Virus record (IMG/VR): IMGVR_UViG_3300035698_022014
Span: 1-64,000 of that record
Reading direction: 5' to 3' (one strand)
From: a virus
Length of the DNA: 64,000 nucleotides
A program made the position numbers and the translations under genes. The notes beneath the pieces were generated by a model. It was not told where the DNA came from. It did not search any database and was given only the letters and a program-made list of their open reading frames with translations. Of this stretch, positions 42,204 to 49,248 are shown piece by piece (the first letter of the stretch is position 1; each line of letters starts with the position of its first letter).

Positions 42204-43088
42204 TTACGCTAAACTAGCATAGAGGTGGATCTGAAGATTGAGAACGTAACCATGTTCGATGCAGTATTGTGCTGCATATTCATGATTGCGTTGATTTGCA
42301 CTCATGTCCAACAATCCAGGTTCCCAGAAGCTAATCACCTCATCGACTGTAGATCTTTCTCCGATCTCAATTCTGTTTGCTCCACTGTTCCGCAACTCCT
42401 TACTCTTTATTGGCTCGTCGTTGTATACGTTCATTGGACTGATGTAGATTGGCTTGTTTGTCTTTTTGTGCTATTCTTGTGCCCACTCTGGGATTGAGCT
42501 GTATGGACTGTCCGGATCCGCTTCCATCACGAACTTCAAACAATCTGCATCGATCATGTTGTCTTTGTGTGGTTTGATGTACTTGCCCATCATTCCACCC
42601 TTCTCAATGCACTTTGGACTCATAACCAAAGTCGTTGTTTTCGGAATGCTTGCTTGATGAACGATCCCATTAGACTCGATTTGAGTATTCTTAAATACCT
42701 TATTCATCCGTTCCAACAGCGGTCCAATATTCTTCTGTAAGAGAGGTTCGCCACCCGTCATTACAAGAACCATTTGCTTTTTAATTCCCAGAACCGGATC
42801 ATGCAAAGTCCAATTAGGACGATTTATTCCTTTGTCTGAATAGAATTTGTCTATTGCTGTTTCTATGTGAGCATCAATCTCATCGAACGTCATCCAATCA
42901 CCATCATCAAAGAACGTGTCACAAAAACTACATGCTAGATTACATTTTGCTAATCTAACAAAGAAAGCTGGTTCACCTCGGAACGGCCCTTCTCCTTGTA
43001 AAGTCATGAACATCGATGTGACGAATAATTTGTGTTCTTCTACGTCCTTAAAATATTTCTGTCCTACTATCTCGTTTTGCCCAAACAT
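42204..43088 (-). CDS. queE: 7-carboxy-7-deazaguanine synthase QueE with in-frame TAG at 42471-42473
   Basis: TLQGEG, CNLACSFCDT, TGGEPLLQ, ESNG, SPK, LKFV, LNLQIH; the two track ORFs share a frame across one TAG (294 aa if read through). Confidence 0.9.
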
Positions 43089-44365: not shown

Positions 44366-44551
44366 TTAACAATTCCAAAGGTAAGTAGTGTCCGAATACT
44401 GGGTTTTGAGAACGTCTTCTGACATTCTATCAATCATATTTGCTTCTCCTTGAATATCGCCTTCAAGTTGTACAGTGTCAACGTAATGCTCCATCGCTTT
44501 TTTGATGGTCTCAAGTTGGTTGGTGTCCATCTCAATGATAATTTTACTCAT
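44366..44551 (-). CDS. Hypothetical early protein
   Basis: Downstream of promoter; AAGGGG RBS. Confidence 0.6.
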   Translation of the reverse strand: MSKIIIEMDTNQLETIKKAMEHYVDTVQLEGDIQGEANMIDRMSEDVLKTQYSDTTYLWNC

Positions 44552-44584
44552 TGTATGCCCCTTGTTGGTGTTGCTCGTACTAAT

Positions 44585-44613
44585 AGTGTATGTGCAACCT
44601 GGAGCCATGTCAA
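44585..44613 (-). promoter_or_regulatory. Sigma70-like promoter TTGACA-N17-TACACT, upstream of denV-queD-queE
   Basis: Consensus -35, 17-nt spacer; overlaps the gp43B stop. Confidence 0.7.
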
Positions 44614-46322
44614 GCGAAAAAGTCTTCCAATGTGTCCACCTTTGTGGCAGACCACCCCAATGAATCGAGAATGTTTTGAATTGGATCTAAGAACACTTTT
44701 GAGAACTGTTTCTCTCTATCAACGTAAATGTCTATTTCCATTTCTGTGGGAGGACTCTCAATGAACGAGATTATATTTTCGCGAAGAGGATTCGGCAGCT
44801 TCAAATACACAAACTTGATCTTGTCTCCTGACTGTATTAGGGGATAACGGTTAACGAGGTCATTATCCACAGTCCACTTGTTTGATAGAAGACAACCACG
44901 GATGTGAATTGGACAGGCCTTCTTGTATATCGTTCTTGGATCTGCATAGCCATCCACGTCGTTGGTTCCAGAGACCTTGGCTATATGCTGAACAGGCAGA
45001 CTAAAAAACTCCTCCTTGAAGTCTCTTATAAATTCCTGAGTCTCAGATTCACCTTGTGTGACAATAATCTTAAACGCCTCAAAGAACTTCTTTCTACAAA
45101 TTTCAGGCGTAGAGCTTCTTGCTGCATCAATGCCCGTGACAGACACTTTTGGCTCATCATAGTGAACACCCTCGCTGTTAAGGACATTTAAGATGTATCG
45201 CTTCTTTGCAACAAAGATGGCTTTGTCTGCAATCTTTTCACGCTTCATTTTCATTGCGTTACGATATGCGCCCATTCTTTCAGCTAAATCATCATATGCA
45301 TCATCAAGCAACGGTTCAATCTTTTCTTTACATACCTTATCAATAAAAGACTCGCCTTGCTCGCGCGTAACATTGACGGTTCCAAACACCTTTTCTACAA
45401 GCGGACCAAGATTGACATACACGCTGTCTGTATCACAATACACACAATAATCAACGTCTGTTGTTTTGAGCACCTTGTTCACATACAAGTTAATTGCCTG
45501 TGCGGCCCATTTTGTGGATAGCTGTCCTGATGTTGTGATTCCCTCTGCCATGTCACTAATATAGTAGATGAAAAATGCATTGGCTGTACTCCCATAAAGT
45601 CCGTTCATTAGAATCTTGATAGACATTTGACTGTTGTGTAGCTGGGTTATCAGCTTTTTCAATCGTACAATTTCGTCTTTCGTTGTTGCTGTCTCAAGCT
45701 CAGACTCAGCTATAAGCATGTTTACTTTGATCTCTGCACGCTCGTCGTAGTAGCCTTGAATGATCTGAGGAATGATCCCCTCACGTTCTTTGGAGAAGCA
45801 CGCTCCATTTGCTGCTACTGCATATTTGGTTGTGTTTCTGTATTTCCCATCAAGTACAATCTGCTGTGACACATCTTCTTTTACGTTGTGTTGATACGTT
45901 TCTGGTGACATGTTGTATTGCATCATTAAGTGTGGATAGAGGCTGTTAAGGTCAAAGGACACAACCCAATCCTTCATTCCCTTTTGTGGATCCTTTACAT
46001 ATCCACCAACGATACTCGTTGCACGTTGCTCAGATGTGGACTTGACGAATGGTACACGTCCTTGATCCATTAGAGCTCTGAATATAGTTGTGTCCCACAG
46101 TCCCACAGTTCCAAACGCCTCGTTAAAATTCACACCACTCTTGTATGCAACAGTAAACGACAGTGCGAGAAGGGCTGCTTGTTCTTCGAACATCTCAACA
46201 AGTCTAGTATCATATAAGTTGTAATCTAATCCAAGCTGATGATATTCGCGATCAGCAAGATCGGAATACTTGCGATGCATTTCAAGCAACTGCTTGTCTG
46301 TTAGGTCTTTCATATCTTCCAT
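44610..46322 (-). CDS. gp43: Family B DNA polymerase, C-terminal subunit (ExoIII + polymerase)
   Basis: DYNLYD, SFDLNSLYP, KILMNGLYG, YCDTDS, KKRY; own GGAGA RBS before ATG 46322. Confidence 0.92.
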   Translation of the reverse strand: MEDMKDLTDKQLLEMHRKYSDLADREYHQLGLDYNLYDTRLVEMFEEQAALLALSFTVAYKSGVNFNEAFGTVGLWDTTIFRALMDQGRVPFVKSTSEQRATSIVGGYVKDPQKGMKDWVVSFDLNSLYPHLMMQYNMSPETYQHNVKEDVSQQIVLDGKYRNTTKYAVAANGACFSKEREGIIPQIIQGYYDERAEIKVNMLIAESELETATTKDEIVRLKKLITQLHNSQMSIKILMNGLYGSTANAFFIYYISDMAEGITTSGQLSTKWAAQAINLYVNKVLKTTDVDYCVYCDTDSVYVNLGPLVEKVFGTVNVTREQGESFIDKVCKEKIEPLLDDAYDDLAERMGAYRNAMKMKREKIADKAIFVAKKRYILNVLNSEGVHYDEPKVSVTGIDAARSSTPEICRKKFFEAFKIIVTQGESETQEFIRDFKEEFFSLPVQHIAKVSGTNDVDGYADPRTIYKKACPIHIRGCLLSNKWTVDNDLVNRYPLIQSGDKIKFVYLKLPNPLRENIISFIESPPTEMEIDIYVDREKQFSKVFLDPIQNILDSLGWSATKVDTLEDFFA

Positions 46323-46419
46323 AGAGTCTCCAAGATTGGTTATTTTTTTGTAGAAGGGGGAACCACAGTACAACGGAACATCAATTCTGACGCTTAACAG
46401 AAATTGTAATAGACGCAAA

Positions 46420-47466
46420 CTAGACAGAAAGTCCTCTACGTTGGATCTCTTCTAGTAAAACATCCCTTCGTTTTACATACGTTTCCCCATCTGTCAGTAT
46501 ATCGTCGGGGAGGTCGTGTGATATTTTTACGTCCTTGGCCCCGTCAGAAATGAATCGGTGAGTATCGACTTTGTTTCCGTGTGCCTCATAAGAAAGCTTC
46601 TTTGTCCCCAGCACGACTGCAGCGACGTTGTCGAGCTTATATGACTGCATCGTGCCATATTTGTATCCAAACTTCTTAAACGTATTCATGTAATCAACGA
46701 TACTGATACCACTAATTACATATGTTTTTTGCATCTTCTTGAACATCTCAAATGACCGTTCACGAACGTGGCCCCATGGTGAGAGTCGTTTGACAGCAGC
46801 CATTCCGAGTATGTTTTCAATTCTCTTCACAATGTACGCGATGTCAAATAGCTCGACGTTCCATCCTGTGACGACATCTGGATAGTCACTGCACCACAAA
46901 TCGACAAACCTGTTCAGCATGTCGTACTCTGATTCACATTTGTGGTACTTGATTAATGACGGATCGATTCCTGTAACGGTCTTTTCTGGATCGTAGTCTT
47001 TTGTACCGAACATGTAGTAGTTGGATGATTTAGATGATTTAATTGCAACAGACGTAATCTCGTTGTCCGCATTCTCCATATCAGGCTTTTTCTTGCTGAT
47101 ATCTACCTCAATATCGAAAGTAAAGATGTTGATCAGCGAAGGATCAAAATCAATTGTACCAGGATACATGTCATATGTGAAAGATGCGACGTAATTGGTA
47201 TTGCCACACATGATCATGTTTTGGACGTCTTTATATCTCTCTACAAATTCTGTTGCGCCCTTCATGCTATCACATTGGATAGACTTCAATGGCTTGTCAC
47301 CTATTAACGATACGTGCGATGGCTTTTGATCCCCATTCTGTCGATCCTCTACATAGAATGTAGGCTGATATTTGACCTTCTTGTAGAACCGTTTGCCGTT
47401 GTCATAACCTGTCCATAGTATATCATTTCCATACCGTTCGATCTTTGTATACATCGTGCTGCTCAT
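46420..47466 (-). CDS. gp43: Family B DNA polymerase, N-terminal subunit (ExoI/ExoII)
   Basis: FDIEV, TGWNVELFDIAY, RLSPWG, SYKLDNVA. Confidence 0.92.
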   Translation of the reverse strand: MSSTMYTKIERYGNDILWTGYDNGKRFYKKVKYQPTFYVEDRQNGDQKPSHVSLIGDKPLKSIQCDSMKGATEFVERYKDVQNMIMCGNTNYVASFTYDMYPGTIDFDPSLINIFTFDIEVDISKKKPDMENADNEITSVAIKSSKSSNYYMFGTKDYDPEKTVTGIDPSLIKYHKCESEYDMLNRFVDLWCSDYPDVVTGWNVELFDIAYIVKRIENILGMAAVKRLSPWGHVRERSFEMFKKMQKTYVISGISIVDYMNTFKKFGYKYGTMQSYKLDNVAAVVLGTKKLSYEAHGNKVDTHRFISDGAKDVKISHDLPDDILTDGETYVKRRDVLLEEIQRRGLSV

Positions 47467-47517
47467 TATATATCCTTATGTGCGGATTCTTCATTATACG
47501 TCAAAACGTATGAAAGA

Positions 47518-49248
47518 TCAATTGCCATCATCTGCTGATTCGGCTACTTGTGTGAAATTCTTTACCTTCTCAAACTTGAGATGGCGGTCAAATCGCTCTG
47601 TGAAAGCATCGCCACGATGGGTAATGACAAAGATGTTATCATTTGCGTTCAACCTCTTGAGGATCTCAAGGAGTGAATCGACTCCTTGTGCGTCGCTACC
47701 ACTGTCGAGTATTTCGTCCAGAATTAACAGGTTGGTTGATACACTGTTTCTTAGTTTCGATAATGCTCTCCATGAGAACAACAAGCTCAGGTTAATTCTC
47801 ATCTTTTCGCCTTCTGAAAAGGAGCCGAACGAAAATGTATCACGGAATCTACTTTTTATCACTTCATTGAAATTCTCGTCAAGATTAAAGTCTACAAACA
47901 ACTCGAACCCTGAAAGATACTGGTTGATTAACGTGTTCATTATAGGAATGTAGGTCCTGACAATGCTTGTCTTGATTCCTCCATCCTTTAACATCGTTGC
48001 TACAACACCAAGAGTCTCTCTTTGTTCGTACAAATCTGTCTGAACACCTTCCAAACCTGTCAAACTTGCTGCATATTCAACAATTCTACTTTGATCGATC
48101 TCCTCAACGTCCCTTTCAGCAGATTGTAGCTCTTCCTTGATGTTGTTTAGTTGACTGATGACCATCTTGACTGACAGACGGCATTCGCTTGCCTTGGTAT
48201 GCAATTTCTGAATATCATCTTCTACGACAGATATTTCTTCTAATCGCTGTTCCAGTGTAGTTTTTTTGTTTTGAAGTTGGACAATGCCATTTCCAAGTTC
48301 AACACCTTTGTTTGTTTTCTCCTCAACAACAGTCCGTTTGAATTCGTGTTCGATCCCCTGCTTGCAGGTAGGACAGTTGTCATGTACAGAGTAAAAGTCA
48401 ATCTCTTTTTCAAACGCCCTTTGCTTTGTGTCAAGGTCGTAAATCAATTCTTTGACTTTTTCGTGTGATGTCTTCTGTTTGGACTTATCACTTATCGTTG
48501 TTCCTAGTTCTGTAATATTCGTCTCATATCCTTCTATCTCAACTTTGTCACGCTCTATTGTAGTCAGATATTCCGAGACTCTCAGTTTGAGCTTATCAAC
48601 CTCTGTTAATTTGAGTTTTCGGATCTCTGCATTGTGCTCTTTGGCGGATGTGATTTTCATCTTCAGCAAATCAACAGAGTGGTTGTTGTCTGATATAAGT
48701 GTCTTGTTTGAGGATATGCGATCCTTTAGCAGCGTGTTCATCGTACTAAACACTTGAATATCGAGGAGATCTTCGATTATTTCCCTTCGTTGACCTGTAG
48801 GAAGGTCCATGAACGGGACGTACGTTGCACTTCCCAAGATTACAATTTGCGTAAATGACTTGTAGGTCATTTTGAGAATAGACTGTTCCAAATAATCCTG
48901 ATAGTCTTTTGAGGCTGCATCCTTGTTGAGAAGCACACCATCCTTGAGGACCTCAAATATGTTTGGTTTGATTCCTCTGCGAATTGTGTAGTCACTCGAC
49001 CCTATTGAGAATTCAATTTCAACAAGCATGTCCTTTTGATTGACAGAATTGACAAGCTGTGGTTTGTTTATTTTTCTGAAACTACGACCATACAACACAA
49101 AAACAATTGCTTCAATCATCGTTGACTTGCCTGCACCATTACTACCTGACAGCAACGTGGTCTTCACGTCCGTGAAGTTAATCTCAATAAATTGGTTTCC
49201 GACAGAAAGGATGTTTTTATATCTAATATTCTTAAAGTGAATGTGCAT
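47518..49248 (-). CDS. gp46: Recombination ATPase gp46 (SbcC/Rad50-like)
   Basis: GSNGAGKST, CPTC hook, FSEGEK, LILDE. Confidence 0.95.
   Translation of the reverse strand: MHIHFKNIRYKNILSVGNQFIEINFTDVKTTLLSGSNGAGKSTMIEAIVFVLYGRSFRKINKPQLVNSVNQKDMLVEIEFSIGSSDYTIRRGIKPNIFEVLKDGVLLNKDAASKDYQDYLEQSILKMTYKSFTQIVILGSATYVPFMDLPTGQRREIIEDLLDIQVFSTMNTLLKDRISSNKTLISDNNHSVDLLKMKITSAKEHNAEIRKLKLTEVDKLKLRVSEYLTTIERDKVEIEGYETNITELGTTISDKSKQKTSHEKVKELIYDLDTKQRAFEKEIDFYSVHDNCPTCKQGIEHEFKRTVVEEKTNKGVELGNGIVQLQNKKTTLEQRLEEISVVEDDIQKLHTKASECRLSVKMVISQLNNIKEELQSAERDVEEIDQSRIVEYAASLTGLEGVQTDLYEQRETLGVVATMLKDGGIKTSIVRTYIPIMNTLINQYLSGFELFVDFNLDENFNEVIKSRFRDTFSFGSFSEGEKMRINLSLLFSWRALSKLRNSVSTNLLILDEILDSGSDAQGVDSLLEILKRLNANDNIFVITHRGDAFTERFDRHLKFEKVKNFTQVAESADDGN

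Follow-up and report, generated by a model that had tools for sequence, protein, structure and literature searches.

A T4-type DNA polymerase of a salt-lake virus, probably made as two subunits that share the proofreading site

Some T4-related phages encode gp43, their replicative DNA polymerase, in two pieces. Bicistronic gp43 (43A/43B) was described in the Aeromonas and Acinetobacter phages 25, 31, 44RR, 65, and 133 (Petrov et al. 2006, 2010); as summarized in PMC3061061 and PMC2988022, the two cistrons lie 2 bp to 3 kb apart, sometimes with a homing endonuclease between them, and the gp43 subunits of phage 25 co-purify and are active. Here we report a two-gene gp43 in a 64,000-nt stretch of viral DNA (positions 1 to 64,000 of IMG/VR record IMGVR_UViG_3300035698_022014; hereafter the window), which is part of a 75.6-kb viral contig from a salt-lake metagenome. 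The window phage shares with the 43A/43B phages the enzyme family, the phage group, and the arrangement of gp43 as two adjacent cistrons. In the 43A/43B proteins, however, the break is at the fingertip and each active site stays in one chain, whereas in the window the break lies between the ExoII and ExoIII motifs, within a dedicated insertion, and the proofreading site is shared between the chains. Fingertip splits are present in relatives of the window phage (P0002, L007, and L014) but not in the window phage itself.

Other divided enzymes resemble the window protein in part. The family B DNA polymerase (PolB) of the chimallivirus PhiKZ consists of gp82 and gp50, which form a stable 1:1 complex resembling RB69 gp43 (preprint PMC13648687). 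It is likewise produced from two genes and split in a large lineage-specific insertion, but the insertion is in the palm domain, the genes are far apart, and the exonuclease domain is whole in one subunit. Other natural PolB splits are known in the palm (Methanothermobacter) and at a split intein (Nanoarchaeum; PMC3061061, PMC2988022, PMC2677866, PMC13648687). The two-gene PolB of RM378 is cut at a domain border and the Nanoarchaeum pieces are ligated by protein splicing, and in neither are the exonuclease motifs divided, unlike in the window. Outside the polymerases, NrdA of Aeromonas phage Aeh1 is split by the mobE homing endonuclease, and a later stage of such "fractured genes," lacking the endonuclease, has been described (PMC2988022, PMC2677866). 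Like the window gp43, Aeh1 NrdA is an essential T4-type enzyme cut in a functional region; it works as two chains, as the window gp43 presumably does. Unlike the Aeh1 locus, the window has no endonuclease gene or intein, and a link to homing is suggested only by the scattered distribution of the split and by the loci of relatives. Described PolB breaks thus keep each active site in one chain or fall at a domain border, whereas that of the window falls inside the proofreading domain. A survey of PolB diversity and a survey of jumbo phages contain no mention of a split inside the exonuclease domain. The break point appears to be absent from the split polymerases described in the searchable literature, although absence of a report is no proof of novelty. 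A preliminary description of the locus, made from the sequence alone, had proposed a fission away from the known fingers split, and the break indeed differs from the described fingertip, palm, and N/palm splits (PMC3061061, PMC2988022, PMC13648687).

The gp43 locus of the window consists of two open reading frames (ORFs), which we call pieces A and B (Table 1). The sole Pfam domain of piece A is the PolB exonuclease domain PF03104 (9.7e-24), and this piece aligns to residues 4-325 of T4 and RB69 gp43, for which structures have been solved. Piece B matches only PF00136/PF03175 and aligns to residues 315-887 of RB69 gp43 with an E-value of about 1e-69. The catalytic motifs ExoI (DxE), ExoII (NxxxFD), ExoIII (YxxxD), and Pol A, B, and C are all intact and are spread over the two chains. 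The ExoI and ExoII catalytic carboxylates are on A, and the ExoIII Tyr and Asp are on B, which also carries the stretch returning to the N-terminal domain in RB69. The catalytic residues of the exonuclease are therefore divided between the chains as the preliminary description had proposed, and its coordinates, 97-nt gap, GGAGA ribosome-binding site, and extra termini are all correct. Piece A ends 51 aa after KKLSYEAHG (residues 289-297), and piece B begins 33 residues ahead of ExoIII. The fingers region is uninterrupted in piece B, so that the locus is not a fingertip split. The exonuclease and Pol motifs, the palm, fingers, and thumb aligned to RB69, and the position as the sole polymerase in a replication/recombination neighborhood are those of a T4-type gp43. 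We consider, with a probability of roughly 0.8, that the window encodes a genuine T4-type family B replicative DNA polymerase in two genes and as two subunits, split in the turn of an insertion. Among cultured phages, T4-like cyanophages and Phage C48C1 come closest (<47% identity), and the gene is unsplit in all of them. The consensus promoter match upstream of piece A is the likely start of a transcript spanning both pieces. A promoter/terminator scan predicted neither element in the gap, and the gap sequence occurs only once in the genome and is absent from the phage collection, where the region as a whole gave no match by megablast.

Table 1. Positions of the features of the divided gp43 locus in the window
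Feature	Position	Strand	Location or content
Sigma-70-like promoter match, TTGATC-17-TATAAT, upstream of piece A	47493..47521	minus	consensus match only
gp43 piece A, 348 aa	46420..47466	minus	N-terminal domain and exonuclease domain to just before ExoIII
ExoI FDIEVD, A residues 117-122	47101-47118	minus	piece A
ExoII NVELFD, A residues 203-208	46843-46860	minus	piece A
A tail, residues 295-348, first half of lineage-specific insertion	46423..46584	minus
HRFISDGAKDV, conserved, in A tail	46528-46560	minus
Terminal basic helix of A tail, ETYVKRRDVLLEEIQRRG	46432-46485	minus
Piece A stop codon TAG	46420-46422	minus
Intercistronic gap, 97 nt	46323..46419	minus
Shine-Dalgarno GGAGA, 4 nt ahead of piece B ATG	46327-46331	minus
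Piece B start ATG	46320-46322	minus
gp43 piece B, 570 aa	44610..46322	minus	new N-terminal helix, ExoIII, rest of N-terminal domain, palm, fingers, thumb
B head, residues 1-28, second half of insertion; lengthens ExoIII helix N-terminally	46239..46322	minus
ExoIII YNLYD, B residues 34-38	46209-46223	minus	piece B
Pol motif A (DLNSLYP)	45933-45953	minus	piece B
Pol motif B (KILMNGLYG)	45591-45617	minus	piece B
Pol motif C (YCDTDS)	45423-45440	minus	piece B

The split gp43 is genuine and under selection, and reflects neither an error nor gene decay. An independent 327-nt contig over positions 46251-46577 (depth approximately 3x), assembled from a second salt-lake sample of a different study, shows zero differences from the window across the stop, the gap, and the start; the misassembly that the preliminary description had allowed for is thus not borne out. 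The same pair is found in two IMG/VR contigs, L003 and L004, at 94% and 97% protein identity and a synonymous divergence (dS) of 0.45-0.62. Both retain the TAG, the gap (94 nt there), and GGAGACTCTATG, and their gaps differ from that of the window by approximately 18% divergence and a 3-nt indel. In piece A, the ratio of nonsynonymous to synonymous divergence (dN/dS) is 0.04 over the core and 0.09 over the tail (compared with L003); in piece B, both the head and the remainder show 0.03. The L004 record (208,230 bp, 100% complete according to CheckV) holds the split PolB, and no further PolB or PolA was found in it. The absence of any other PolB or PolA from this complete-rated relative means that the two pieces must form the replicase of the phage.

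Several ways in which the locus might not produce a working two-chain enzyme were considered. The pieces could be a decaying pseudogene or an assembly or sequencing artefact, with the phage using another polymerase. The contig of the window itself is estimated to be just 36% complete, and a second polymerase in this exact genome is accordingly conceivable. We nevertheless regard this explanation as highly improbable, given that the junction is spanned by an independent contig, that the architecture is kept at a dS of about 0.5 with dN/dS values of 0.03-0.09, that the complete-rated relative has no other PolB or PolA, and that the catalytic motifs are intact and the same split is found in several distant lineages. 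Programmed recoding could instead yield one chain, either by a +1 frameshift into the B frame or by a ribosomal hop of the gene 60 type from GGA to GGA, with take-off 3-4 codons ahead of the stop and landing at an in-frame GGA 9 nt ahead of the B start. In the window no stop interrupts the B frame within the gap, over the 32 codons that precede the ATG; GGA is in frame at both ends; and the linker of a hop product would resemble in length that of the natural fused forms described below. The open frame can be attributed to chance, however, because stops within the gap close the B frame in the 94% relatives L003 and L004, where the 3-nt indel is also tolerated. Moreover, the downstream GGA is merely part of the Shine-Dalgarno sequence, the take-off Gly is missing from several A tails (P0003 and P0008), the stop does not directly follow GGA, and the gap folds no better than shuffled sequence (z = 0.27). 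Translational bypassing as in T4 gene 60 is not matched in the position of the take-off stop or in the structure of the gap, and the gap tolerates both an indel and approximately 18% substitutions. Read-through of the TAG in frame A would be stopped again after 12 codons. Recoding is therefore very unlikely. As the preliminary description had noted, no single indel is able to join pieces A and B. Finally, a small intron or a split intein might remove the tail and head and join the pieces after transcription or translation, and the split intein that relative L014 has elsewhere in gp43 indicates that such elements circulate in the gene. The same Pfam search that detected PF14890 in L014, however, found no Hint, Intein_splicing, PF14890, or PF01079 match in pieces A and B, in line with the absence of intein motifs noted previously, and no Rfam family matched the region. 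The tail (54 aa) and head (28 aa) are too small for a HINT fold and are predicted to be helical. The insertion boundaries lack a Cys, Ser, or Thr nucleophile, an HN motif is absent, the insertion is retained as ordinary in-frame coding sequence in the fused relatives, and both termini evolve as protein-coding sequence. With no intein blocks and with short, helical termini, A and B do not form a "fractured gene" of the split-intein type, and such joining is hardly conceivable. Two separate polypeptides appear to be made, most likely from one transcript.

Comparison with relatives revealed the nature of the extra termini. In protein searches, the N-terminal pieces of relatives were of three kinds. 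The first is approximately 345 aa long and ends with the conserved tail, at identities from 94% down to 33%. The second, of approximately 500 aa, is without the insertion and ends in the fingertip. In the third, of approximately 490-610 aa, the A tail and a B-type head are joined in frame to form one insertion of approximately 70 aa ahead of ExoIII; this fused insertion is encoded contiguously in P0012-14, P0086, L006, L084, and L091. The A tail is conserved in at least 12 A-type proteins (33-94% identity) with the pattern GN.ID.HRFI[TS]DGAKDV.I..D.PD..L..GE..[VA]KRRD....E..RRG. The B head is conserved in the B-type partners P0083, P0088, P0095, P0096, and P0109, as exemplified by the pattern [ST]D.[DE][LI][LI]..[HY]..YS[DE]LAD[KR]E[FY][HY]QLGLDYNL. 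Partners of 571-582 aa in other lineages (P0109, P0095, P0088, and P0096) surfaced just in the search with the whole of B, a protein search with the head only being too insensitive. P0005 (A-type) and P0109 (B-type) have the same longest contig (81,207 bp), as do P0009 and P0095 (20,834 bp); judging from this shared value, each is likely an A/B pair. The survey of relatives envisaged in the preliminary description thus found the same split in at least five other metagenomic lineages, in addition to fused and insertion-free alleles. The helical termini had been described there as novel. They are indeed helical in the models described below, but they are not unique: the tail and head are the two halves of one insertion of approximately 70 aa, which is encoded in a single frame in some relatives. 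Scans of IMG/VR and of a metagenome collection with degenerate tail and head motifs retrieved only L003 and L004 and the fused L006, L084, and L091, the remainder being chance matches, and a search of 1.84 billion representatives with a profile of the insertion gave 3 real clusters and one repetitive artefact, P0087. In this 581-aa sequence, an Arg-, Leu-, and Pro-rich unit of approximately 100 aa is repeated six times almost unchanged; the sequence probably results from translation of a tandem DNA repeat, and its match to the profile is spurious.

Structural models place the break within the insertion. The AlphaFold2 model of the fused protein P0012, based on a 79-row alignment, has a mean predicted local distance difference test (pLDDT) score of 85.9, with values of 87-97 over the hairpin, and matches RB69 gp43 with an E-value of 2e-33. 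It comprises a short helix (301-305), a loop, a helix (323-340), a four-residue turn (341-344), and a long helix (345-384) that contains ExoIII. When the window pieces are aligned to P0012, A ends and B starts within the turn 341-344, and the break is thus predicted to fall in the turn of a helix-turn-helix hairpin. When piece A was modeled alone (17-row alignment), the terminal helix was kept (326-343) and the pLDDT was below 50 over residues 263-313, which is consistent with piece A needing B to fold.

On this basis, we propose how the two-chain enzyme would work. A and B would be translated separately from one early transcript, A ending with the first helix of the hairpin and B beginning, from its own ribosome-binding site, with the second. 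In a pairing like that of the fused forms, the basic helix at the end of A would bind the helix at the start of B and so clamp the two chains together. Ordinary packing within the domains would also contribute to their association, since the ExoIII helix and a portion of the N-terminal domain come from B. The exonuclease domain would fold around an ExoIII helix given in trans, producing a composite 3'-5' exonuclease site: A would contribute Asp and Glu of ExoI together with Asp of ExoII, and B would contribute Tyr and Asp of ExoIII. The polymerase site would lie wholly in B. Both proteins must contribute to the proofreading site, since ExoII and ExoIII lie on opposite sides of the break, which is inside the proofreading domain. 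Some points weigh against this two-subunit assignment. The hairpin model is that of a fused homolog just approximately 50% identical to the window protein, and the low confidence of A alone is just a hint because its alignment was shallower (17 rows versus 79). In addition, no RNA run was found to carry the sequence, and we infer separate translation, 1:1 assembly, and activity. In such an enzyme, exonuclease catalysis would depend on two proteins meeting, in an essential replicase, which would make it a naturally occurring example with which to probe the limits of polymerase fragmentation, and the helical hairpin would be a candidate protein-complementation module.

The split state is scattered among relatives. 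At least 8 changes of state across well-supported branches are required on the tree of the N core (109 rows), and at least 4 on that of the B core (120 rows). The core of the split P0011 is 92% identical to that of the insertion-free P0020, and the split P0088 is 90% identical to the unsplit P0094; the closest insertion-free relatives of the window, L005 and P0002, show 77-78% identity. Divergence of the tail tracks that of the core (r = 0.72). The pattern fits repeated allele replacement by recombination, or transfers from unsampled donors, and the split-plus-insertion allele would be swapped or lost among related phages through recombination. In the group to which the window belongs, gp43 is clearly a target of mobile DNA. 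In L014 (5998-11771), gp43 is in three pieces: a fingertip break is followed by a 398-aa ORF (H-N-H-like by eye, with a weak NUMOD3 match), and the KKRY region contains a split intein (N- and C-terminal parts of PF14890) with a second 398-aa ORF between its halves, which is the layout of a "fractured gene." A 418-aa ORF lies between the halves of a fingertip-split gp43 in L007 (7513-8769) and also in L008, L009, and L011.

With respect to the origin of the split, the allele may be a trace left by homing endonucleases, whose activity on gp43 is visible in relatives. More specifically, but only tentatively, the tail-stop-gap-start-head segment could be a transferable cassette, once driven by a homing endonuclease that is now lost, which brought its own complementary pair of helices, a basic KRRD-type helix and an acidic SDLAD-type helix, to hold the halves together. 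If so, the helices would take over the role of a split intein with no splicing involved, a mobile element could interrupt an enzyme within a catalytic domain with little harm, and the swapping of split for unsplit alleles and back between polymerases of 90-92% identity would represent an ongoing homing cycle. Such a cassette exchange is plausible but unproven, and several observations speak against it. The 97-nt gap contains no ORF, and so no endonuclease gene, and is thus not a homing insertion, endonuclease-like ORFs being seen only at other gp43 break sites in contigs of relatives (L007-9, L011, and L014); the ORFs between the pieces of relatives give only sub-threshold NUMOD3 matches; and the correlation of 0.72 is as compatible with old vertical descent and repeated replacement as with transfer. 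Alternatively, the split may have arisen by a partial tandem duplication, the A tail containing a decayed copy of the ExoIII helix and B keeping the working copy. The comparison here is between HRFISDGAKDV of the tail and QKF[IV][DE]YN[IV]KDV of cyanophage and T4 gp43. Both phmmer and tblastn extend the alignment of A through tail residues ~313-323 onto the ExoIII region of T4, C48C1, and cyanophages, the A and B matches to C48C1 overlap by 21 codons, the tail alone lands on the ExoIII of C48C1 (shuffle p = 0.003) and S-PM2 (p = 0.03-0.04), and 9 of the 13 tails adopt the same register. On the other hand, profile-profile comparison gave no signal at ExoIII (the best hhalign match was elsewhere, E = 0.31), the scores of hidden Markov models were just 0-2.5 bits (p 0.02-0.3), and comparison of the tail with the B head of the window or with a canonical member of the clade gave p values of 0.5-0.75. 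A duplication is therefore possible but doubtful. The preliminary description had suggested that the split perhaps allows tunable proofreading or adaptation to modified G. On such an adaptive reading, the stoichiometry of the subunits would tune proofreading or help the phage to cope with DNA containing 7-deazaguanine. The position of gp43 beside a cluster of queD, queE, and a phosphoribosyltransferase gene (PRT) would suit this idea, as would the altered substrate tolerance of Pfu polymerase engineered with a fingertip split (PMC3061061). However, L005, the closest unsplit, insertion-free relative (77% identity), has the same denV-queD-PRT neighborhood, with denV, queD (88% identity), and the phosphoribosyltransferase gene directly downstream of gp43, and the 7-deazaguanine cluster therefore does not require the split. 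Conversely, split or insertion alleles occur in lineages without que genes in the flanks, as in L006 with its fused insertion. The alternation of split and unsplit states among 90-92% identical polymerases also resembles a neutral or selfish polymorphism and not a fixed adaptation. A link of the split to 7-deazaguanine or to tunable proofreading is thus unsupported, and an adaptive origin is unlikely.

The occurrence of fused, split, and insertion-free alleles in close relatives provides a comparative series in which neutral scars of mobile elements can be set against consequences for fidelity. The findings also carry a warning for annotation: ORFs of 345 and 570 aa annotated as "DNA polymerase" in marine and saline T4-like phages are probably working halves, not fragments.

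Further irregularities were seen in gp43 of the relatives. L006 (4517-7449) has the in-frame fused form of the ExoIII insertion and a further insertion of approximately 70 aa in the palm. Its fingertip break has an arrangement reminiscent of translational coupling, with a 4-nt overlap between the second ORF and the stop of the first. P0012 and P0013 are 492-aa N-terminal pieces that end a few residues past Pol motif A with a short foreign tail, which points to a possible further break site of gp43 in the clade.

The neighbors of gp43 in the window are gp46/gp47-like (SbcCD) genes, denV, queD, queE, and the phosphoribosyltransferase gene. An 80-aa ORF with no family match (44366-44608, minus strand) begins 2 nt past the stop of piece B and overlaps the start of denV; it shows just 63% identity in L003 and L004, where the flanking genes show 90-97%. 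At 42204-43088 (minus strand), the queE-like radical SAM ORF (205 aa) spans just positions 3-156 of the 219-position QueE profile, and is followed after 36 nt by a 76-aa ORF with no family match (no PDB or NCBIfam match). QueE may also be in two pieces; both ORFs are kept in L003 and L004, at 94% and 99% identity, respectively.

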